Source of the DNA: Escherichia coli
Lineage (GTDB): Bacteria; Pseudomonadota; Gammaproteobacteria; Enterobacterales; Enterobacteriaceae
DNA length: 10,459 nt
Strand: one strand, 5' to 3'
NCBI RefSeq assembly: GCF_003334765.1
Contig: NZ_QOWT01000058.1
Shown here in pieces: positions 1,638 through 10,289 of this stretch; position 1 is the first letter of the stretch, and every line of letters begins with the position of its first letter. A program made the translations under genes and the position numbers. The notes under the pieces were generated by a model that was not told the DNA's origin, ran no database searches, and worked only from the letters and a program-made list of their open reading frames with translations.

Positions 1638-2080
1638 GTGCACCGGCAACCATTCTTGATATGTGCTGTGGCAGCCGCATGTTCTGGTTCGATAAGTCTG
1701 ACGAACGGGCGATATTCAGCGATATCAGAAAAGAAGGATACACATTACGCAATGGGAGACGCTTGATTATCAGCCCTGACATTATCGCAGATTTTCGTGC
1801 ATTATCATTTGCAGACGCATCTTTTTCGATGGTTGTATTAGACCCTCCGCATCTTGAGAGTGTTGGTGATAACGCCTGGATGGGAAAGAAATATGGACGG
1901 CTGAATAAAGATGCCTGGCGTGATGATTCGCGACAGAGATTTAAAGAAGCCTTTCGGGTGTTGAGGCCGCACGGCGTTCTGATTTTTTAATGGAATGAAA
2001 CGCAAATACCGGTAAGCCAGATTCTGGCACTGACAGACAGAAAACCTGTTATCTGTCAACGAACAGGGAAAAAACGATAA
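1634..2080 (+). pseudogene. SAM-dependent (DNA) methyltransferase-like gene interrupted by an in-frame TAA at 1988..1990
   Basis: Translation contains a motif-I-like DMCCGSR and a motif-IV-like VVLDPPH (DPPY/NPPY class), then LRPHGVLIF before the TAA. The same frame stays open for 29 more codons (WNETQIPVSQILALTDRKPVICQRTGKKR) to TAA 2078..2080. Assignment to the N6-adenine/N4-cytosine methyltransferase class is by motif only. Confidence 0.45.
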
Positions 2081-2252
2081 AACCCACTGGATTATTTTTA
2101 TGAAAGAGGCATCCAGTGAGTAGATTCGTAAGGCTACAGATACGTATATCTGAATAATTAAATTCAGTTCTGTAAATAAAATTTAATCCTTAACCGGATG
2201 GATTTCTGCACCCTCAGAACATCAGGAGGCCGCCCGAAAGGGCGGTAGTGAA

Positions 2253-2412: not shown

Positions 2413-2604
2413 ATGAGGAAGAACAAAGTGGCTGATTTTTGTTCAGCTAAATATAACATCAGTTTTGAAGAGCGGGATGAACTATTAATGGACTATGGTG
2501 AGTTACGCGGTGGAAGTGCTGCTGATGTCGAATCCTAGCGTGATGACTATGAAGCGGGAAAAACTCCGGTCGAAGCATATTGTGATGAGTGGGGCGATGA
2601 ATGA
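2413..2604 (+). pseudogene. short ORF interrupted by in-frame TAG (2536..2538); probable decayed prophage gene
   Basis: ATG 2413, 41 codons, TAG, then 21 more open codons to TGA 2602..2604. The alternative frame is also open, which fits decayed coding DNA. Confidence 0.2.
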
Positions 2605-2888
2605 GCGAGATTAATTATCAGGAAGGGCATGAAACGGCGGGGCAAGCAAAACCAGTGGCATGGCGATATCGCTACGTGAAAAAAGGCGTTACGGACTTTC
2701 AGGGGAAGTAGTGGTCTGGTGACTGGAAATATGTACCGAAAAAAGAGGATTGTAACGACAGGCCGAACTATCAAATTCAGGCCTTATTCACTGCCTCACC
2801 AGTCCCAGTTACATCAGAAGAACTGGTTAAAGCTGTGCACTTTTATGAACAACTAAAACGCGAAAATCCACCAACATCCGGCAACTAG
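2601..2888 (+). pseudogene. short ORF interrupted by in-frame TAG (2709..2711); probable decayed prophage gene
   Basis: ATG 2601 overlaps the upstream stop (ATGA). 36 codons, TAG, then 58 further open codons (WSGDWKYVPKKEDCNDRPNYQIQALFTASPVPVTSEELVKAVHFYEQLKRENPPTSGN) to TAG 2886..2888. Confidence 0.25.
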
Positions 2889-3142
2889 ATTAATGGATTA
2901 ACTATGTCGGTTAAACGACCAGCCAACTGAAAAAGCGGAAACCTGATTACAGGTTGCCAGATAAGGCAATGAGCTACCTGGCGCGGAACGGACTGATAAG
3001 TATGGGGAATGTTTTACGATGAACCTTTAGACTAAAGAGTTTGTAACGCTATGTAAGTGATTTTTTCTGGTTTAGATATTTATATGTCCGGCCAAATTGA
3101 GGTGTGTTTAAATGTAATTGCACATTGATTGTAGGAGGAATA

Positions 3143-3322
3143 ATGAAAAACGCATTGCAGTTTTTGTTTGTTGCGTTCTGGTTGTTCGCATCATGTATGC
3201 CCATCATCTTCACAGCAAGGTATATGGAAAAAGTTGATGTTTTGATATTAATATTTGGATATATAAATGCCCTTTTTTTAGGGGTGTTCATGGCGGTCAT
3301 GTGCATTGAATACTGGCGGTAA
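3143..3322 (+). CDS. small predicted membrane protein (59 aa, two hydrophobic helices) in an AT-rich islet
   Basis: Strong Shine-Dalgarno AGGAGG (3133..3138) 4 nt before ATG 3143. Translation MKNALQFLFVAFWLFASCMPIIFTARYMEKVDVLILIFGYINALFLGVFMAVMCIEYWR has two hydrophobic segments. Local GC content is low. The track lists a longer 3104 start with no ribosome-binding site. Confidence 0.4.
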   Translation: MKNALQFLFVAFWLFASCMPIIFTARYMEKVDVLILIFGYINALFLGVFMAVMCIEYWR

Positions 3323-3508
3323 ATACAGCGAACTCCATTGGTTTAGTTGGATATTTACTGTGCTGGACAAAAACGGTTTGCGGGGAAATCTTAGTTAAGT
3401 AGAATGACTGCGGGTGCTTGAGGCTATCTGCCTCGGGCATGGACACCAACGGCAGATAGAGAAAAGCCCCAGTTAACATTACGCGTCCTGCAAGACGCTT
3501 AACATTAA

Positions 3509-3590
3509 TCTGAGGCCAATTTCATGCTAGACACATGTAGGTTAGCCTCTTACGTGCCGAAAGGCACGGAGAAGCAGGCTATTGTTAACA
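3509..3590 (+). other. degenerate relE-3'end/hok-leader-like segment (paralogous remnant of the hokD translation-initiation region), no intact toxin ORF
   Basis: 3568..3582 GGAGAAGCAGGCTAT is identical to the hokD ribosome-binding site and start region at 6857..6871. The upstream hairpin CGTGCC-GAAA-GGCACG (3553..3568) parallels CACC-GAA-GGTG (6824..6834) with compensatory changes. 3509..3537 weakly resembles 6794..6818. The start position reads ATT and only 6 codons follow before TAA. Confidence 0.4.
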
Positions 3591-3627
3591 CCAAGCTGTA
3601 ATGTCCCCTTTGAACCATTCTAAAATG

Positions 3628-3654
3628 TCCCCAGACAATTCTCTGGGGGATTTT
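3628..3654 (+). other. stem-loop CCCCAGA-caattc-TCTGGGG plus T-run directly upstream of the transposase start
   Basis: 7-bp perfect stem followed by GATTTTTC, ending 2 nt before ATG 3657. It is terminator-like; it may insulate the transposase gene from read-in transcription or be part of the IS end. Confidence 0.4.
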
Positions 3655-3656
3655 TC

Positions 3657-4970
3657 ATGATCAAAGAGACTGTTACGATGAGTCATAAGGAACTCCACCG
3701 ACTTCAGATTATTCAGGAACAAGCTGCGGCACGCATTGGCATTTCTATTCGGCAGGTTAAACGTCTGGTGCAACGGTATAGAAATGAAGGGCCTTCTGGT
3801 CTGGTTTCCCACCGACGTGGAAAGCGTCCTAATAATTCCTTTTCTACTGAATTCAGAGCAACAGTAATTTCACTCCTCAAAGGCCGTTACGCTGATTTTG
3901 GACCTACGTTTGCGTGCGAAAAATTGCGCGAGATACACGGTTTATCTTTATCCGTTGAAACTCTCAGAAAGTGGATGATAGAAGAGGGGTTATGGCGTGA
4001 ACGCCGTCGTAAAATTGCCCGTATATATCAACGCCGCATGCGACGACCATCTTACGGTGAACTGATCCAGATTGATGGCTCACCTCATGACTGGTTTGAA
4101 AATCGAGGCCCCAGATGTACACTGATCGTTTTCATTGATGATGCCACCAGTGCGTTGATGGCGTTGCGTTTTGTGCCTGCTGAAACAACCCGGGCTTACA
4201 TGGAAACCCTCCGGGGTTACCTTAATGATCATGGCGTACCGCTCGCTCTCTACTCTGATAGACACAGTATATTCAGGGTAAATAACCCAGAGCGGGAAGG
4301 TGAGCTGACCCAGTTCACTCGTGCGATAAAGACACTGGGCATCGAGCCAATCCATGCCAACAGCCCGCAGGCAAAAGGGCGGGTAGAGCGCGCCAATCAG
4401 ACACTACAGGACAGGCTGGTCAAAGAAATGCGGCTTCAGAATATCAGTGATATTGAAACAGCAAATGCATGGTTGCCGACCTTTATTGAAGCCTATAACA
4501 ACCGGTTCGCTACGTCGCCTCGTACTACTGATAATGCTCATCTTGATGTGCACCATTCTGAAGAGGAACTGGGTTATATCTTCAGCCTACAGGCGAAGCG
4601 CGTTCTGTCTAAAAATCTCACTTTCCAGTACAAAAGCAGTGCGTTTCAGGTACGCAGTGAGGGCCGGGGATATCGACTTAGGCATTCGGTTGTTACTGTA
4701 TGCGAGAACTTTGACGGTGAAATTAACGTTCTGTATGACGGGAAAGCGCTGGGCTGGGAAAAGTATGTTGATGGCCCGGAGCCTATACCACTGGATGATG
4801 AAAAGAGTGTCCATGAACGAGTGGATAATGCCCGTATTGATTTACGCTCAAAATACTATGTTAAACCTAAAGCTGACCATCCCTGGCTTACGCGCCGAAC
4901 GCAAAGTCATCAGCAAGTTAAGCCCCCGAAGTTACCTAAAAAGAAGCCTGATCCCGATAAAAAAGATTGA
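3657..4970 (+). CDS. DDE transposase with N-terminal helix-turn-helix and integrase-core domain (ISNCY/IS1202-group or IS481-like)
   Basis: 437-aa ORF. The N-terminus (RIGISIRQVKRLVQRYRNEG) looks like a helix-turn-helix. Candidate catalytic residues are D in IQIDGSPHDW, D in ALYSDRHSIF and E in KGRVERANQTL. The basic lysine/proline-rich C-terminus is typical of transposases. GGGGGA precedes the ATG by 7 nt. Family assignment is from memory. Confidence 0.85.
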   Translation: MIKETVTMSHKELHRLQIIQEQAAARIGISIRQVKRLVQRYRNEGPSGLVSHRRGKRPNNSFSTEFRATVISLLKGRYADFGPTFACEKLREIHGLSLSVETLRKWMIEEGLWRERRRKIARIYQRRMRRPSYGELIQIDGSPHDWFENRGPRCTLIVFIDDATSALMALRFVPAETTRAYMETLRGYLNDHGVPLALYSDRHSIFRVNNPEREGELTQFTRAIKTLGIEPIHANSPQAKGRVERANQTLQDRLVKEMRLQNISDIETANAWLPTFIEAYNNRFATSPRTTDNAHLDVHHSEEELGYIFSLQAKRVLSKNLTFQYKSSAFQVRSEGRGYRLRHSVVTVCENFDGEINVLYDGKALGWEKYVDGPEPIPLDDEKSVHERVDNARIDLRSKYYVKPKADHPWLTRRTQSHQQVKPPKLPKKKPDPDKKD

Positions 4971-5366
4971 AACCAAGATCGATTCGGTTGAGTGCATATC
5001 CATTCATAGGGTAGATTCTTAAGTCGCGTTTCTGGTGTTCATTTTCGGGTGGTTTGTTACTTGTTTTACCGGGGATATGCCAGAAACGCGCTGAGTCAGT
5101 CTGGGCGGTGCGCGTAATGAGGCGTTATGGTAAATAGCCTATGCTAATGTCCGCTAAGAGCAAGAAGCGGAAGTTGGCAGTTTTGTGGACTGTCCCCACA
5201 AAAGTGACTACAGAAATAGTTGCAATTCATAATTGATCATGGGTTGTCAGTTAAACTCGTGGCGATTTAAATAGACTAATTGGGAGTGCGTCCATTACTT
5301 ATATCTTGTAATGTTAACTATCAGAAATGATACAAAGATAATATGTCTTTAAAGAAAAGGCTGATG

Positions 5367-5392
5367 GCGAAAAGTGGCCCGATGAGGGCCAC
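5367..5392 (-). terminator. rho-independent terminator of flxA
   Basis: Hairpin GTGGCCC-gatga-GGGCCAC (5374..5392). On the minus strand it is followed by TTTTCGCC, 14 nt downstream of the flxA stop. Confidence 0.5.
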
Positions 5393-5406
5393 AATACGGC
5401 TGTCAC

Positions 5407-5739
5407 TTAGACGTAAATATCAATGGTGCCAGCGGTATTTGTATCGTCTTTTTTCTCTTCTTTTTTATCAGGCTGAACTGTCGCGTCTTCATTCTTTTTC
5501 TCTGCCTGCTGCCTTAACAACTGCTCCAGTTGAGCCCAGAGGCTTTCAATTTGCTTCTGTACCAATGCAGCCATTTCTTTTTTCTGCTGTGTCGTCATCC
5601 CCTCTTCCGATGAGATTTTCCCAAGCTTTTCAGTCAGCACCTGAATTTGTCTTGTGATTTTGGCTATTTCTGATGTTCCTTCCGGGGCGGAGTTGTTTGA
5701 AATAACGGTTGAGGTATTTCCCTGAATTGTGACAGACAT
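5407..5739 (-). CDS. flxA: FlxA (FliA-regulated prophage protein)
   Basis: 110-aa ORF (MSVTIQGNTSTVISNNSAPEG...QQKKEMAALVQKQIESLWAQLEQLL...) recognised from memory as E. coli FlxA. GGAG lies 7 nt upstream of the ATG on the minus strand, and a sigma-28 promoter lies just upstream. Confidence 0.85.
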   Translation of the reverse strand: MSVTIQGNTSTVISNNSAPEGTSEIAKITRQIQVLTEKLGKISSEEGMTTQQKKEMAALVQKQIESLWAQLEQLLRQQAEKKNEDATVQPDKKEEKKDDTNTAGTIDIYV

Positions 5740-5762
5740 AGATTTCTCCTTTTAAAAAAGCA

Positions 5763-5789
5763 CTATCGGCATGCACAAAAAAATCTTTA
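5763..5789 (-). promoter_or_regulatory. sigma-28 (FliA) promoter for flxA
   Basis: Minus strand reads TAAAGATT-N11-GCCGATAG against the class-3 flagellar consensus TAAAGTTT-N11-GCCGATAA (14/16). The -10 element ends about 24 nt upstream of the flxA ATG. Confidence 0.6.
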
Positions 5790-5941
5790 ATCGTATTTCT
5801 TGTGTCATTAATTGTTTGATGTTCAGATTGTTTTCCTCGCGGGCTGGCGCGCCTCAGAAAGTAAAGCTTGTTGACAGGGGTAAACGTTCGGCAATAATTT
5901 TCTGCCGCATGCGGGTGTTGCATAAAACGTGTTACGTTCCT

Positions 5942-6247
5942 TTATCGACAGGTCAGGTCACCGCTCACCCGCCGACGAGAAAGCAACACTGACATGCTAA
6001 AGCAAAAAATAGATGAATAAGTTGAGTTGTGCATATGTAGCCTGACCGTCACAAAGTATATGGTGTCTGTACCAGTAAGATGATGGCCGGACTCTTTAAA
6101 AACGAGCTGACCTGCACAATACAGGATGGACTTAGCAATGGCTGCTCCTGGCACAAAGCGGACAGTGATCACCGTTCTTACGACTACTTTCTGACTTCCT
6201 TCGTGACTTGCCCTAAGCATGTTGTAGTGCGATACTTGTAATGACAT
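5942..6247 (-). CDS. ydfV: YdfV-like hypothetical ORF (doubtful coding status)
   Basis: 101-codon ORF at the position where K-12 annotates ydfV, as I recall. Its ATG (6245..6247) lies inside the relBE operator repeats and the translation is S/T/C-rich and poorly protein-like, so it is kept at low confidence. Confidence 0.4.
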   Translation of the reverse strand: MSLQVSHYNMLRASHEGSQKVVVRTVITVRFVPGAAIAKSILYCAGQLVFKESGHHLTGTDTIYFVTVRLHMHNSTYSSIFCFSMSVLLSRRRVSGDLTCR

Positions 6248-6259
6248 TTGTAATTACAA
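6208..6259 (+). promoter_or_regulatory. relBE promoter and operator (relO)
   Basis: -35 TTGCCC (6208..6213), 17-nt spacer, -10 GATACT (6231..6236). TTGTAAT repeats at 6236..6242 and 6248..6254, and the palindrome TTGTAATTACAA (6248..6259), lie between the promoter and the relB ATG at 6272. This is the classic RelB-RelE autoregulation site. Confidence 0.65.
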
Positions 6260-6271
6260 GAGGTGTAAGAC

Positions 6272-6511
6272 ATGGGTAGCATTAACCTGCGTATTGACGA
6301 TGAACTTAAAGCGCGTTCTTACGCCGCGCTTGAAAAAATGGGTGTAACTCCTTCTGAAGCGCTTCGTCTCATGCTCGAGTATATCGCTGACAATGAACGC
6401 TTGCCGTTCAAACAGACACTCCTGAGTGATGAAGATGCTGAACTTGTGGAGATAGTGAAAGAACGGCTTCGTAATCCTAAGCCAGTACGTGTGACGCTGG
6501 ATGAACTCTGA
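6272..6511 (+). CDS. relB: RelB antitoxin
   Basis: 79-aa ORF MGSINLRIDDELKARSYAALEKMGVTPSEALRLMLEYIADNERLPFKQTLLSDEDAELVEIVKERLRNPKPVRVTLDEL, near-identical to E. coli RelB from memory. Its stop overlaps the relE start (TGATG). Confidence 0.93.
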   Translation: MGSINLRIDDELKARSYAALEKMGVTPSEALRLMLEYIADNERLPFKQTLLSDEDAELVEIVKERLRNPKPVRVTLDEL

Positions 6512-6798
6512 TGGCGTATTTTCTGGATTTTGACGAGCGGGCACTAAAGGAATGGCGAAAGCTGGGCTCGACGGTACGTGAACAGTTGAAAAAGAAGCTG
6601 GTTGAAGTACTTGAGTCACCCCGGATTGAAGCAAACAAGCTCCGTGGTATGCCTGATTGTTACAAGATTAAGCTCCGGTCTTCAGGCTATCGCCTTGTAT
6701 ACCAGGTTATAGACGAGAAAGTTGTCGTTTTCGTGATTTCTGTTGGGAAAAGAGAACGCTCGGAAGTATATAGCGAGGCGGTCAAACGCATTCTCTGA
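6511..6798 (+). CDS. relE: RelE mRNA interferase toxin
   Basis: 95-aa ORF MAYFLDFDERALKEWRKLGSTVREQLKKKLVEVLESPRIEANKLRGMPDCYKIKLRSSGYRLVYQVIDEKVVVFVISVGKRERSEVYSEAVKRIL, recognised as RelE. It is translationally coupled to relB. Confidence 0.93.
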   Translation: MAYFLDFDERALKEWRKLGSTVREQLKKKLVEVLESPRIEANKLRGMPDCYKIKLRSSGYRLVYQVIDEKVVVFVISVGKRERSEVYSEAVKRIL

Positions 6799-6869
6799 AC
6801 CAAAGCATGACATCTCTGTTTCGCACCGAAGGTGACACTTCTGCTTTGCGTTGACAGGAGAAGCAGGCT

Positions 6870-7025
6870 ATGAAGCAGCAAAAGGCGATGTTAATCGCCC
6901 TGATCGTCATCTGTTTAACCGTCATAGTGACGGCACTGGTAACGAGGAAAGACCTCTGCGAGGTACGAATCCGAACCGGCCAGACGGAGGTCGCTGTCTT
7001 CACAGCTTACGAACCTGAGGAGTAA
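6870..7025 (+). CDS. hokD: HokD (RelF) Hok-family type I membrane toxin
   Basis: 51-aa ORF MKQQKAMLIALIVICLTVIVTALVTRKDLCEVRIRTGQTEVAVFTAYEPEE, not in the ORF track because it is short. It has a ribosome-binding site GGAG at 6857..6860. The Hok family signature is a transmembrane helix followed by LCE. Confidence 0.9.
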   Translation: MKQQKAMLIALIVICLTVIVTALVTRKDLCEVRIRTGQTEVAVFTAYEPEE

Positions 7026-7115: not shown

Positions 7116-7241
7116 TTTTTATTTTCAACGCGTTTGAAGTTCTGGACGGTGCCGGAATAGAATCAAAAATACTTAAGTAGCGCGCAGGGATAAGAGGGAT
7201 GGTCCCTTAAAGGGGAGAGCTAATTATCCGGAAGGATTCTG

Positions 7242-7493
7242 ATGATGAACATCGAAGAACTGCGTAAAATTTTTTGTGAAGATGGCCTCTATGCTGTGTG
7301 CGTTGAAAATGGAAATCTTGTTAGTCATTACCGCATTATGTGTTTGCGAAAGAATGGGGCTGCGTTAATTAATTTTGTGGATGCTCGGGTCACGGACGGA
7401 TTTATCTTGCGCGAAGGTGAGTTTGTCACTTCATTACAGGCATTGAAAGAGATCGGAATAAAAGCTGGCTTTTCTGCTTTTTCAGGAGAATAA
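7242..7493 (+). CDS. rem: Rem-like prophage protein
   Basis: 83-aa ORF MMNIEELRKIFCEDGLYAVCVENGNLVSHYRIMCLRKNGAALINFVDARVTDGFILREGEF..., matching Qin prophage Rem by memory and by its position between hokD and ydfU. Confidence 0.8.
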   Translation: MMNIEELRKIFCEDGLYAVCVENGNLVSHYRIMCLRKNGAALINFVDARVTDGFILREGEFVTSLQALKEIGIKAGFSAFSGE

Positions 7494-7839: not shown

Positions 7840-8889
7840 GTGCGGGTATTACTTAGACCTGTTCTGGTGCCTGAGCTTGGGCTGGTGGTCCTTAAGCCGG
7901 GCCGTGAATCCATACAGATATTTCATAATCCTCGAGTGCTGGTGGAACCGGAACCAAAAAGCATGCGTAATCTGCCATCCGGAGTCGTTCCTGCCGTTCG
8001 CCAGCCGCTGGCGGAAGACAAAACATTGCTGCCGTTTTTTAGTAACGAACGGGTGATTCGTGCTGCTGGCGGCGTTGGCGCATTGTCCGACTGGCTATTA
8101 CGTCATGTTACATCCTGCCAGTGGCCTAATGGCGATTACCATCACACTGAAACAGTCATTCACCGTTATGGTACCGGCGCAATGGTGTTGTGCTGGCACT
8201 GCGACAACCAACTGCGTGACCAGACATCGGAATCACTGGAGCTGCTTGCTCAACAAAATCTGACAGCATGGGTGATTGACGTCATCCGTCACGCAATAAG
8301 CGGTACGCAGGAGCGGGAATTATCTTTGGCTGAATTATCCTGGTGGGCGGTCTGCAATCAGGTGGTGGATGCACTACCTGAGGCTGTATCGCGTCGTTCG
8401 CTGGGATTACCAGCGGAAAAAATCTGCTCGGTGTACCGCGAAAGCGACATCGTACCGGGAGAGCAGACCGCCACCAGCATATTGAAACAACGCACAAAAA
8501 ATCTTGCACCGTTGCCTTACGCCCACCAGCAACAAAAATCACCACAGGAAAAGACGGTGGTAAGCATCACCGTTGATCCAGAGTCTCCGGAATCTTTCAT
8601 GAAGCTGCCTAAACGTCGCCGCTGGGTTAAGGAGAAATACACACGTTGGGTTAAGACACAGCCGTGTGCTTGCTGCGGTATGCCAGCCGACGATCCGCAT
8701 CATCTGATTGGTCACGGGCAGGGCGGAATGGGAACAAAAGCACATGATCTCTTTGTGTTGCCTTTGTGCAGAAAGCATCACAACGAGCTGCATACGGATA
8801 CAGTGGCATTTGAAGATAAGTATGGCTCCCAACTGGAGCTGATATTTCGTTTTATCGATCGCGCGCTGGCAATTGGCGTACTGGCGTAA
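7840..8889 (+). CDS. ydfU: YdfU-like DUF968 protein (HNH-like C-terminal motif)
   Basis: The track ORF 7801..8889 is trimmed to GTG 7840, which is preceded by GGAGG, giving 349 aa. The C-terminus CACCGMPADDPHHLIGHGQGGMGTKAHDLFVLPLCRKHHNELH has a Cys/His pattern like HNH/zinc-binding nucleases. Identity is from memory. Confidence 0.8.
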   Translation: MRVLLRPVLVPELGLVVLKPGRESIQIFHNPRVLVEPEPKSMRNLPSGVVPAVRQPLAEDKTLLPFFSNERVIRAAGGVGALSDWLLRHVTSCQWPNGDYHHTETVIHRYGTGAMVLCWHCDNQLRDQTSESLELLAQQNLTAWVIDVIRHAISGTQERELSLAELSWWAVCNQVVDALPEAVSRRSLGLPAEKICSVYRESDIVPGEQTATSILKQRTKNLAPLPYAHQQQKSPQEKTVVSITVDPESPESFMKLPKRRRWVKEKYTRWVKTQPCACCGMPADDPHHLIGHGQGGMGTKAHDLFVLPLCRKHHNELHTDTVAFEDKYGSQLELIFRFIDRALAIGVLA

Positions 8890-8902
8890 GTGGAGAACGA
8901 GC

Positions 8903-9655
8903 ATGAACCTTGAAGCCTTACCAAAATATTACTCCCCAAAATCTCCAAAATTGAGCGATGACGCTCCAGCGACAGGCACCGGTTGTTTAACAATTACGGA
9001 TGTAATGGCAGCGCAGGGGATGGTGCAGTCGAAAGCACCACTTGGGTTGGCCTTATTTCTGGCAAAAGTTGGTGTTCAGGACCCTCAGTTTGCGATTGAA
9101 GGCCTGCTAAATTACGCGATGGCACTGGATAACCCGACATTGAACAAATTGAGTGAAGAAATCCGGTTACAGATTATTCCTTACCTCGTGAGTTTTGCCT
9201 TTGCTGATTACTCCAGGTCTGCGGCAAGTAAGGCTCGCTGTGAGCATTGTTCAGGTACGGGATTTTATAATGTATTGCGCGAAGTGGTGAAACACTACAG
9301 ACGCGGGGAATCTGTAATCAAGGAAGAATGGGTGAAGGAACTATGTCAGCATTGCCATGGTAAGGGCGAAGCCAGCACAGCGTGCAGAGGGTGTAAGGGT
9401 AAAGGGATTGTTCTGGATGAAAAAAGAACCCGGTTTCATGGCGTACCGGTATATAAGATTTGTGGGCGTTGTAATGGAAACCGGTTTAGTCGTTTACCGA
9501 CCACGCTGGCACGACGTCATGTCCAGAAGCTGGTACCAGACCTGACCGATTATCAGTGGTATAAGGGGTATGCGGACGTCATTGGTAAACTGGTAACAAA
9601 GTGCTGGCAGGAAGAAGCATACGCGGAAGCGCAATTGAGGAAGGTGACGAGATAA
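8903..9655 (+). CDS. quuQ: Q-family late-gene antiterminator (QuuQ-like)
   Basis: 250 aa from ATG 8903, which has GGAG 6 nt upstream; the track ORF starts 10 codons earlier. Contains several CxxC pairs (CEHCSGTG, CQHCHGKG, CRGCKGKG, CGRCNGN) and is followed by a promoter-terminator pair arranged like lambdoid P_R'-tR'. Confidence 0.85.
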   Translation: MNLEALPKYYSPKSPKLSDDAPATGTGCLTITDVMAAQGMVQSKAPLGLALFLAKVGVQDPQFAIEGLLNYAMALDNPTLNKLSEEIRLQIIPYLVSFAFADYSRSAASKARCEHCSGTGFYNVLREVVKHYRRGESVIKEEWVKELCQHCHGKGEASTACRGCKGKGIVLDEKRTRFHGVPVYKICGRCNGNRFSRLPTTLARRHVQKLVPDLTDYQWYKGYADVIGKLVTKCWQEEAYAEAQLRKVTR

Positions 9656-9686: not shown

Positions 9687-9715
9687 TTGCATTTTTCAAA
9701 AAATATGGATAAAAT
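9687..9715 (+). promoter_or_regulatory. putative late promoter (P_R'-like sigma-70 promoter) downstream of quuQ
   Basis: -35 TTGCAT (9687..9692), 17-nt spacer, -10 TAAAAT (9710..9715), beginning 32 nt after the quuQ stop. Confidence 0.5.
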
Positions 9716-9760
9716 TTTTTCAACGATGGGCTTTGTATACCCGACGTTAAGAAAAAGTAG

Positions 9761-9790
9761 AAAACCCGCTGATGAGCGGGTTTTGTGCTT
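9761..9790 (+). terminator. rho-independent terminator (tR'-like, possibly bidirectional)
   Basis: Hairpin CCCGCT-gatg-AGCGGG (9765..9780) followed by TTTTGTGCTTT. An A-run precedes it, so it could also act on the minus strand. It lies about 50-60 nt downstream of the predicted start of the putative late promoter. Confidence 0.55.
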
Positions 9791-10076
9791 TAAATGGGGC
9801 AATGGTAATGTTGAATCTCATCCCGGGACTCATGTCTGTTAACTTATTATTTAGCTGGTGACTTGGTTATTTGCCTGATGTTTAAAATGTTTTCTTCCAG
9901 TACAATGTCCCTAAACACAATGAGTCTGCTTATTATATTATTAGCAGAGCTATTACGGCCAAAGTACAGCATAAGCTTTTAAAGCCAATCAACCAGTCAT
10001 CAAGACAGACGGGGTTATTCATAAAAACTCTCCATGTGTGATCCGATGGGGCCTGAAATTAAAGCTTTAATATAGC

Positions 10077-10289
10077 TCATGAAAGGTAAACATTGGCAGC
10101 TGAAGGGCCACGCAGACCATTTATCCGGCAAAATTCCACGCGTAATCCGGTGGTAATTTCTTCTGCATCGCGGAGATTGAGCGCTGAAACATGAAGCTGG
10201 ACATCGATACGACCATCGGATGGGGTGATAAGACCCTTGCCGCTTTTGCCGTCAAAGGTTTTGACAATTCCTGTCATTTTACGGGACAA
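10077..10289 (-). CDS. cspF: cold-shock-domain protein, CspF/CspH family
   Basis: 70-aa [73 protein letters not shown] with CspA-family motifs. It is convergent with quuQ. The first codon is TTG, with AAGGA 6 nt upstream. Confidence 0.8.

Follow-up and report, generated by a model that had tools for sequence, protein, structure and literature searches.

Phage morons can encode small inner-membrane exclusion proteins, as exemplified by HK97 gp15 and T4 Imm. An AT-rich islet in a stretch of 10,459 nucleotides of Escherichia coli DNA (contig NZ_QOWT01000058.1 of assembly GCF_003334765.1; hereafter the window) resembles these morons in being a compositionally distinct and apparently dispensable temperate-phage insert between conserved genes, in being found in some relatives while others are without it, and in carrying an open reading frame (ORF) for a short, predicted inner-membrane protein. 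It differs from them in that no sequence or profile similarity was found (PHROGs), that no promoter or terminator of the cassette's own was detected and that exclusion is only putative here. A second point of comparison is provided by GhoT and OrtT, two-span E. coli membrane toxins of 57 amino acids: the product of the islet ORF (59 amino acids) is of nearly equal length and is likewise a predicted inner-membrane two-helix hairpin, but it has no Pfam or NCBIfam match to this family, no GhoS-like partner lies beside the ORF and its conserved motifs (SCxPII, FGxxNALxxGV and IExWR) are unrelated. The Hok/Gef type I toxins, which include the neighbour hokD, are also small hydrophobic prophage-borne peptides with a strong Shine-Dalgarno (SD) sequence, and physical linkage of the ORF to hok is seen in each of the two lineages described below; however, its product has two predicted spans instead of one and no Hok Pfam match, and the ORF has no mok-type overlapping frame and no detected fold-back leader or antisense RNA. 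Finally, YdfD, the 63-amino-acid lysis protein of Qin, is a small membrane protein that belongs to this prophage type and is annotated in this region, but it is single-span, lies at a separate locus beside dicB and has an NCBI product name, whereas the 59-aa ORF has none.

Some of the Qin/Rac-type lambdoid prophages of E. coli and Shigella carry the islet (approximately positions 3023–3364; 342 nt) as an optional, moron-like cassette, which occupies the slot between the stop codon of the last nin-region gene and the hok/sok promoter. In a phage that lacks it (L160), window position 3022 is joined to position 3365 via 75 unrelated nucleotides, which sets both junctions (3022/3023 and 3364/3365). 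Two lineages of the cassette were distinguished, that of the window (lineage 1) and a diverged one (lineage 2; Nissle 1917, L154) which is homologous to the window from about position 3009 to 3365. The initial annotation was right about the sharply lower GC content (approximately 0.35; 0.35–0.375 over positions 3001–3400 versus 0.41–0.50 in the flanks), with comparable dips elsewhere in the window (2001–2200, 5201–5500 and 9701–10100), so that composition is not unique to the islet. Nucleotide diversity is 0.01–0.025 in the islet versus 0.05–0.17 in its flanks. About 16 of the 120 phage loci anchored on hok carry the islet, most hokD-type loci being without it. Two typical moron features were thus found for the cassette, its presence or absence among otherwise collinear phages and its distinct composition, and a third, an own promoter and terminator, was not. 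A consensus scan gave no sigma-70 site and matches to position weight matrices (PWM) were weak and not positionally conserved, a weak negative given the insensitivity of such scans; a terminator scan, also of low sensitivity, found none on the plus strand between the ORF stop and the hok promoter.

The left part of the cassette (positions 3023–3132, plus strand) is a conserved untranslated leader which travels with the ORF and aligns between lineages with several indels. Its predicted RNA fold is not better than that of shuffled sequences (z = +0.42, and −1.66 for the other strand). The cassette has at its left edge a 13-nt palindrome, CTTTAG-A-CTAAAG (positions 3025–3037), which reads CTTCAG-T-CTGAAG in lineage 2; one compensatory change preserves it, a hint, drawn from two lineages only, that the palindrome is conserved. 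A structured leader RNA or antisense sRNA was considered and rejected in view of the unremarkable folding z-scores and the single compensatory pair.

The ORF itself occupies positions 3143–3322 of the plus strand (ATG at 3143, TAA at 3320–3322), a length of 180 nt with 59 sense codons and a stop as read directly from the sequence, and encodes MKNALQFLFVAFWLFASCMPIIFTARYMEKVDVLILIFGYINALFLGVFMAVMCIEYWR. As the initial annotation had noted, its start is a near-ideal AGGAGG-N4-ATG: the SD sequence AGGAGG (positions 3133–3138, plus strand) is followed by the 4-nt spacer AATA. An SD sequence precedes the ORF in both lineages, and among 137 copies from IMG/VR (a flank-anchored, unbiased set) it reads AGGAGG in 73, AGGGGG (3136A>G) in 62 and is otherwise G-rich in 2. 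Initiation at a GTG codon at position 3104, which would give a 72-aa product, was rejected; lineage 2 has an in-frame TAA five codons upstream of the ATG, and the conserved start is therefore ATG 3143. Rare alleles of the ORF are frameshifted, truncated or fused. The place of the frameshift alleles is a homopolymer tract inside the coding sequence, CCCTTTTTTTAGGGG (positions 3270–3284, plus strand), at which the protein variants P0019, P0022, P0024 and P0025 diverge and where deletion of one nucleotide (3270C>-) leads to a 45-aa product in two IMG/VR loci. Programmed frameshifting at the T7 run of the coding sequence was rejected because the homopolymer tract is missing from lineage 2.

The two transmembrane helices predicted in the initial annotation were recovered by both approaches used. 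The protein is hydrophobic (GRAVY = 1.27), with Kyte-Doolittle peaks at residues 4–25 (maximum 2.14) and 31–55 (maximum 2.39) separated by the segment RYMEKVD, and the AlphaFold2 model has helices at residues 2–24 and 30–58 (mean pLDDT 71.5). Judging from sequence and model, the strong SD would drive translation of a 59-residue helical hairpin, which would span the inner membrane twice, with its two termini (K2 on the N-terminal side, R59 on the C-terminal side) facing the cytoplasm and with RYMEKVD as a periplasmic turn of 5–7 residues. The residues invariant in both lineages are W13, S17-C18, P20-I21-I22, T24, Y27, F38-G39, N42-A43-L44, G47-V48 and the C-terminal IExWR; they may form a G39xxxA43xxxG47 face with a membrane-buried Asn, which suggests helix packing or self-association.

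The product could instead be a lipoprotein, with a signal peptide at residues 1–17 and LspA cleavage yielding an N-acylated peptide of 42 residues whose only transmembrane helix would be C-terminal. A lipobox can be read in both lineages (L14-F15-A16-S17-C18 in lineage 1, I14-V15-I16-S17-C18 in lineage 2), with S17 and C18 invariant at 41% overall identity. When applied by eye, and not as a predictor, the PROSITE rule PS51257 is satisfied by both: there is a K or R in the first seven residues (K2 in one, R2K3 in the other), none of the six residues ahead of the box is charged, [AGS]-C is present and the Cys is residue 18. However, conservation of two particular columns at this level of identity has a probability of about 0.17 by chance, F is unusual at position −3 of a lipobox, and the Pfam lipid-attachment model does not match the protein. 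Moreover, where the hydrophobic core would be expected to stop at the lipobox and give way to a polar mature N-terminus, the hydrophobic run goes seven residues beyond the Cys (MPIIFTA in one lineage, VPIILTS in the other) to residue 25, a 22-residue stretch more typical of a membrane span than of a signal peptide, and the helix of the model is continuous over residues 2–24. A lipoprotein is unlikely on these grounds, and a membrane hairpin is the preferred reading.

Evidence for a coding gene comes in part from lineage 2. An exhaustive search of 1.84 billion representative proteins returned a sole distant homologue (P0109/P0114) of 59 amino acids, with 41% identity, no indels and E = 1.2e-8, encoded by the remnant of a prophage at the Rac site in Nissle 1917 and ST131. 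Conservation of the ORF in related sequences, on which the initial annotation had made its proposal depend, was thus observed, at identical length. The coding sequences of the two lineages align without gaps over 180 nt at 59% nucleotide identity, so that frame, start and stop are kept in a diverged relative, and they differ at 25, 18 and 31 first, second and third codon positions, respectively. The Nei-Gojobori dN/dS ratio is approximately 0.24, a value from one pair only and near saturation (pS approximately 0.70). In column shuffles, the conditional probability that lineage 2 is open given that lineage 1 is open was 0.026, and that of an amino acid identity at least as high as observed was 0.02. 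The plus frame has the highest amino acid identity of the six, the other five being less conserved or closed.

Intactness within lineages was also analysed. The ORF is intact in 135 of the 137 IMG/VR copies, where low diversity leaves little statistical power, and none of the five complete genomes read has a broken lineage-2 ORF; in a prophage remnant at the ttcA site it is the only unbroken gene. One locus with fragmented genes (L151) had been considered as an endosymbiont genome, an assignment rejected on finding the exact protein in E. coli 83972 and the locus at the ttcA site of B2 strains; it is probably a frameshift-rich assembly. On the other hand, the 13 within-lineage substitutions (11 in lineage 1 and 2 in lineage 2) are all nonsynonymous (13:0, with approximately 22% synonymous expected) and hence give no short-range sign of purifying selection.

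That last result speaks for an untranslated ORF, with the islet serving as an AT-rich spacer upstream of the hok promoter, for example H-NS-bound or regulatory, and the hydrophobic open frame being an accident of T-rich DNA. The leader is conserved to the same degree as the coding sequence, PGAP never calls the ORF and no promoter was found, all of which also speaks for such a spacer. Against it stand the start, stop and length that the lineages share although 41% of their nucleotides differ, the best amino acid identity of the plus frame and the SD sequence in both lineages noted above, together with the distribution of indels (several in leader and trailer, none in the coding sequence) and a codon structure in which T is enriched at position 2 (0.52, versus 0.23 at position 3) and GC3 exceeds GC1 and GC2. 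Taken jointly, the spacer and the accidental frame appear rather unlikely. From sequence comparison, the plus-strand ORF at 3143–3322 is probably a real protein-coding gene, whose product would be a membrane hairpin and a dispensable prophage accessory factor.

The function of this putative protein was approached through family and fold searches. Pfam, PHROGs, NCBIfam and PADLOC gave no family for the product of either strand. For the 59-aa protein, Pfam returned nothing even at E ≤ 10, including Hok/Gef (PF01848), PHROGs gave no holin family, the PADLOC profiles of known anti-phage defence families did not match, a profile search of the PDB found nothing and Foldseek against BFVD gave no hit at E ≤ 0.001 (the best, at 0.41, was a generic helical hairpin). 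Since no family or fold was matched, the function proposed here is drawn from analogy only, and the toxin, exclusion and holin roles listed in the initial annotation stand as options only. A holin would be expected in the lysis cassette, beside an endolysin gene; the ORF is part of the nin region, with the Q antiterminator (positions 8873–9655) downstream of it, and has no adjoining annotated lysis gene. The position and behaviour of the cassette are consistent with a dispensable moron-type prophage accessory factor that may act on the cell envelope. Superinfection exclusion, or else defence against other phages, is our single best guess, closely followed by a small membrane toxin that inhibits growth; regulation of hok is probably not its role.

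A more specific proposal is that the ORF encodes a type I toxin repressed by an antisense RNA that is transcribed from the conserved leader or within the coding sequence. Its size, hydrophobicity and strong SD fit such a small hydrophobic ORF, it neighbours hok/sok, and a conserved leader of 120 nt travels with it. Both lineages have a candidate antisense promoter at aligned positions (3273 to 3245 in the window; 7314 to 7286 in L154) and a weak minus-strand terminator-like hairpin is present at 2955–2940. However, promoter-like and terminator-like sites occur at chance frequency, and no antisense RNA was identified from signals exceeding chance or kept in both lineages; the hairpin is outside the conserved cassette and has no lineage-2 counterpart, neither leader strand folds better than shuffles, there is no Rfam match inside the islet, and known type I toxins are usually single-span. 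We consider a type I toxin quite improbable. As for the minus strand, where the initial annotation had pointed to an overlapping frame as a potential rival (positions 3049–3306, 85 aa), it holds the longer open frame at the islet, annotated 'hornerin' or 'hypothetical' in phage records ON470612, ON470619 and PV340562 and with a protein cluster of 157 members, but this frame is effectively refuted as a gene, with hardly any probability left to it: it has no SD and no family matches, its composition is N/K/T-rich as in a shadow ORF, it shares third codon positions with the plus ORF, it is cut in many loci by common nonsense SNPs (3116A>T, leaving 63 aa, and 3069G>A, leaving 79 aa) and all minus-strand frames carry stops in lineage 2.

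The initial annotation saw no recognizable partner gene, which passes over the genomic context: the islet is directly upstream of a hok/sok leader, a relation seen as physical adjacency only. A probable hok promoter (TTGCGG-16-TAGAAT; positions 3378–3405, plus strand; PWM scan) lies directly 3′ of the cassette, and its position fits the Rfam hok/sok model, which begins at 3412. The hok mRNA leader/sok region (positions 3412–3583, plus strand; RF01794, 104.1 bits versus a gathering threshold of 59, E = 2.4e-23) is orphaned from the hok coding sequence in the window. In IS-free phages, position 3582 runs straight into the hok ATG, which corresponds to window positions 6870–6872; in the window a 3.27-kb ISNCY transposon, with relBE, flxA and ydfV as its cargo, interrupts the hok/sok locus. 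The classic relB-relE-hokD (relF) arrangement is thereby explained by a transposon having inserted in the hok/sok locus of a prophage.

In other lambdoid prophages, among them many of the hokD-type phage loci that are without the islet, the same slot holds small hydrophobic ORFs, which include two families, A (MTWPEAFTTVGIAMAVALVVYSICRWG) and B (VLVLKCALAIAAVMAIYCLAVVLMDRLSD), which vary mostly at third codon positions. Like the 59-aa ORF, these have no further plus-strand ORF between them and the hok promoter and are hydrophobic, unannotated and uncharacterized; they differ in being single-span, in their length (27–31 aa) and in having no sequence similarity to the 59-aa protein, and in family A the start overlaps the stop codon of the preceding gene (ATGA) whereas the 59-aa ORF has its own leader. 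An obligatory coupling of slot peptides to hok was considered and is weakened by 39 of 90 family-A loci having no hok leader within 350 nt downstream. The slot upstream of hok/sok could conceivably be a swap site in which the 59-aa hairpin and the single-span peptides of 27 aa and approximately 30 aa are functional analogues, forming a new class of phage envelope effectors (e.g. injection blockers or modulators of Hok-type pores), one of them domesticated by E. coli B2 after prophage decay; we hold this to be a speculative and improbable idea.

Both lineages are widespread in E. coli. Lineage 1 was found in 1584 of 5426 complete genomes (29%) and lineage 2 in 1045 of 5426 (19%); carriers include the probiotic Nissle 1917, pandemic ST131 and, for lineage 1, the reference strains ATCC 8739 and ATCC 25922. 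A word-indexed protein search gave close relatives in E. coli and Shigella only, tblastn of phages and plasmids found no third lineage, and distant blastn of E. coli genomes with either lineage returned nothing between 60% and 95% identity. A scan of genome contigs revealed a single copy, 100% identical, on a contig of a 'Collinsella' MAG, which probably reflects contamination by E. coli. In the papers and supplements searched, the small-gene supplements for O157:H7 Sakai included, no match was obtained for either peptide, or for UniProt or locus tags.

The islet is missing from K-12 MG1655, and the K-12 small-protein surveys therefore could not have caught the ORF. PGAP/RefSeq annotates neither lineage and the phage GenBank records use the wrong strand, a gap that is easily closed. 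If the ORF is expressed, a conserved inner-membrane peptide belonging to no described family would join the prophage accessory factors, as a candidate for exclusion or toxicity that is simple to test.

The plus-strand ORF at 3143–3322 runs for 59 codons from an ATG at 3143 to a TAA at 3320–3322 and is preceded by AGGAGG (3133–3138) and the spacer AATA. The near-ideal start and the low-GC segment described in the initial annotation were thus both recovered; GC content is 0.35–0.375 across 3001–3400, compared with 0.41–0.50 on either side. Three further GC dips of similar depth occur elsewhere in the window. T content is 0.52 at the second codon position versus 0.23 at the third, and GC3 (0.50) is above GC1 and GC2. 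The prediction of two membrane helices also held: the product has hydrophobic segments at residues 4–25 and 31–55, with the linker RYMEKVD, and an AlphaFold2 model based on a shallow alignment places helices at 2–24 and 30–58 (pLDDT 71.5).

When 1.84 billion representative proteins were searched exhaustively with phmmer, a single protein was returned beyond close variants, also of 59 amino acids: HMPREF0358_2809 of E. coli 83972 (41% identity, E = 1.2e-8; lineage 2 hereafter, the ORF of the window belonging to lineage 1). As far as sequence comparison goes, we regard this homologue as the decisive evidence for a gene. Lack of conservation in related sequences, raised as a possible objection in the initial annotation, is not what was observed, since the two coding sequences align without gaps (59% nucleotide identity); several indels are found in the leader and trailer and none in the CDS. 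Differences between the lineages number 25, 18 and 31 at codon positions 1, 2 and 3, respectively, and Nei-Gojobori dN/dS is ~0.24, a rough figure because pS is ~0.70. Amino acid identity (24/59) exceeds that of column shuffles (18.3 ± 2.6, P = 0.02), just 2.6% of shuffles leave lineage 2 open when conditioned on an open lineage 1, and the frame of the plus ORF is the best conserved of the six. A 72-aa version starting at a GTG, found in some GenBank entries, is not conserved, because lineage 2 carries an in-frame TAA 5 codons ahead of its ATG.

The third codon positions of the plus ORF coincide with those of the antisense frame at 3049–3306 (85 codons), so one of the two must be the shadow of the other. 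Search patterns placed in the sequence flanking the ORF, and not at its start, were used to sample IMG/VR. The resulting 141 full copies, 137 of them from IMG/VR, represent 32 haplotypes; in all but two of the copies the plus ORF has a length of 59 aa, and both exceptions carry a 1-nt deletion at 3270. The minus ORF, whose product is rich in Asn, Lys and Thr, is cut to 63 aa by 3116A>T in more than 50 loci and to 79 aa by 3069G>A; no Shine-Dalgarno sequence was found upstream of it, and lineage 2 has stops in every minus frame. The alternative that the minus strand holds the real gene was therefore discarded. Three GenBank phages with the islet (ON470612.1, ON470619.1 and PV340562.1; records L004 and L002) all annotate the non-conserved minus shadow ORF, under the product name ‘hornerin’ in two of them. 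RefSeq/PGAP annotates neither strand, so that the ~560 nt from the last nin gene to hokD carry no annotation.

Diversity within lineage 1 is 0.01–0.025 over 3020–3400, as low as in the hok CDS (flanks, 0.05–0.17), and is too low to settle coding status. All 11 substitutions in the lineage 1 ORF are nonsynonymous, with ~22% synonymous expected; pooling of both lineages gives a within-lineage ratio of 13 nonsynonymous to 0 synonymous (same expectation, P ~0.04), a pattern that could reflect relaxed selection, diversifying selection or merely small numbers. In rare lineage 1 alleles the first 22–41 residues are fused to unrelated sequence. Overall, the plus ORF is very probably translated, and we consider it a real, conserved gene for a small membrane protein that has escaped annotation and sits in a moron-like cassette.

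Lineage 1 is present in 1584 of 5426 complete genomes and lineage 2 (at least 95% identity) in 1045, including Nissle 1917 and ST131, in none of which it is annotated. Some genomes carry both: O25b:H4/ST131 records appear in both match lists. Lineage 2 occupies the Rac attachment site, with ttcA on one side and uspF on the other, in the order integrase fragment, DUF1627 fragment, leader and ORF, hokD-like fragment, frameshifted metal-transporter (sit) permease. Since the hokD-like fragment, 55 nt past the ORF, matches the 3′ half of hokD at 80% identity, the ORF-then-hok adjacency is common to both lineages. The ORF (7190–7369 in the Nissle 1917 locus, L154; also in JJ1887, PA45B and GF130) is the sole unbroken gene of this ~1.3-kb prophage remnant. 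Each of the five complete genomes read has it intact; two polymorphisms, V6M and R33I, both nonsynonymous, were seen. The remnant may be a domesticated relic. In strain EH01-18-04-A (L158, 2294–2991), IS1A lies ~15 nt upstream of the ORF start and the leader is removed.

Residues invariant across both lineages are L8, W13, S17, C18, P20, I21, I22, T24, Y27, L36, F38, G39, N42, A43, L44, G47, V48 and the terminal IExWR; G39xxxA43xxxG47, together with a buried Asn, resembles a face for helix packing. Lipoprotein processing at C18 seems improbable: S17–C18 follows L-F-A (I-V-I in lineage 2) and a basic N-terminus, in agreement, by eye, with the PROSITE lipobox rule, but the hydrophobic run extends 7 residues beyond the Cys and the AlphaFold2 model has a single continuous helix across the lipobox.

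Consensus scans detected no sigma-70 site in 2800–3700 and no plus-strand terminator between the stop codon and the hok promoter. A PWM promoter scan gave weak hits only, at non-conserved positions, and promoter-like sites in lineage 2 occur at chance frequency. The leader RNA folds no better than shuffles; a 13-nt palindrome (3025–3037) keeps its symmetry in lineage 2 through one compensatory change. Among the copies, 73 have AGGAGG as Shine-Dalgarno sequence and 62 have AGGGGG; in lineage 2 it is AGGGA, 7 nt upstream of the start. Because all neighbouring genes are on the plus strand, transcription of the ORF may simply come from the early rightward operon and would then continue into the region of the hok promoter.

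A scan of IMG/VR with a hokD pattern yielded 120 loci, of which only ~16 contain the islet; the hok/sok leader occurs without it in 97 of 110 new loci. Homology of islet-less loci to the window starts at ~3365–3370 or ~3393–3400. One islet-less phage (L160) matches the window through the TGA (3020–3022) of the upstream gene and resumes at 3365, with 75 unrelated nt between, and the homology between lineages 1 and 2 likewise stops at ~3365. These limits define the islet as a ~342-nt cassette (3023–3364) in a slot that follows the last nin-region gene and precedes the hok promoter. The 75 nt of L160 code for a hydrophobic peptide of 26 aa, its ATG and the upstream stop overlapping as ATGA, and in 57 of 96 hok-anchored loci a small TM-like ORF ends at most 140 nt from the hok transcript start. 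Besides the 59-aa protein, the slot holds family A (27 aa, MTWPEAFTTVGIAMAVALVVYSICRWG, ATG overlapping the upstream stop; 31 of 110 new loci by motif search), family B (~30 aa, VLVLKCALAIAAVMAIYCLAVVLMDRLSD; 20/110) and a B-like variant. In families A and B most of the variation is at third codon positions, and neither has a match above noise in PHROG or NCBIfam. ORFs of these two families, small, hydrophobic and unannotated, occupy the slot in L160, L159, L161, L180 and ~60 other IMG/VR loci. At 3019–3030 the window has a three-codon relic, ATGAACCTTTAG, its ATG overlapping the stop of the upstream gene, which appears to be what remains of a family A ORF displaced by the islet. Family A does not depend on the presence of hok: among 90 additional loci anchored on this family, 39 have no hok leader in the 350 nt downstream. 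The slot is part of the nin operon end, and any functional link of the 59-aa protein with Hok is hypothetical.

The window belongs to a Qin-type lambdoid prophage of E. coli, whose genes here include relB (6272–6511), relE (6511–6798), hokD (6870–7025), flxA (5407–5739, minus strand), ydfV, rem, ydfU, a Q-type antiterminator gene and cspF. DNA identical to that around the plus ORF occurs in ATCC 8739 and many other strains and is absent in K-12 MG1655, where a deletion spans ydfX to ydfW. The full non-K-12 Qin region, missing in MG1655, is present in a 4.83-Mb record labelled E. coli DH5alpha (NZ_CP026085.1, L001), which may not derive from K-12. In 2413–3022, just before the islet, two genes of the nin region are decayed, encoding a DUF7167 protein and a 171-aa hypothetical protein (unbroken in other phages, a pseudogene here); in the identical DNA of ATCC 8739, PGAP marks them with an internal stop and a frameshift. 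At the left end (155–973 and 998–1640), an IS3-family, orfB-like transposase ORF (272 aa) adjoins a seemingly truncated DUF977-type gene (88 aa, versus 140 aa in ATCC 8739); an IS has likely inserted into the replication/nin region there.

The relB-relE-hokD (relF) arrangement is a textbook ‘operon’. Rfam places a full hok/sok leader at 3412–3583 (104 bits), 3.3 kb away from its hok CDS, and in IS-free phages position 3582 runs straight into the hok ATG (6870–6872). The intervening unit (3274 nt, 3583–6856) carries an intact ISNCY transposase gene (3657–4970; NF033594, 456 bits), ydfW, flxA, ydfV, relB and relE. It is bordered by a perfect 15-bp direct repeat, GGAGAAGCAGGCTAT (3568–3582 and 6857–6871), and ends in imperfect inverted repeats of ~26 bp, with only two copies in the window; target duplications of 16–28 bp are known in part of the IS1202/ISNCY group (PMC10132070). 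Given these repeats, the IS-free junction and the long duplications of that group, the arrangement looks like a cargo-bearing transposon inserted into a prophage hok, downstream of its SD and upstream of its ATG, an event not visible in K-12 because the left end is deleted there. Such an insertion, if true, would explain the relBE-hokD ‘operon’.

Nothing resembling the 59-aa protein was found in Pfam, PHROGs, NCBIfam, PADLOC, PDB sequences or BFVD folds, and a search of literature and supplements found no mention of the peptide of either lineage. Functions were ranked on size, topology, cassette behaviour and neighbourhood. An accessory factor acting on the envelope to block or abort other phages is our tentative first choice, followed by a growth-inhibiting small membrane toxin or lysis-timing factor, which is possible though rather unlikely; a modulator of a host membrane protein is doubtful, as is an ORF that is untranslated or functionless, and the remainder falls to functions outside these four readings. 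The ORF is widespread and overlooked; it adds a member to a familiar kind and does not represent a new type of system.
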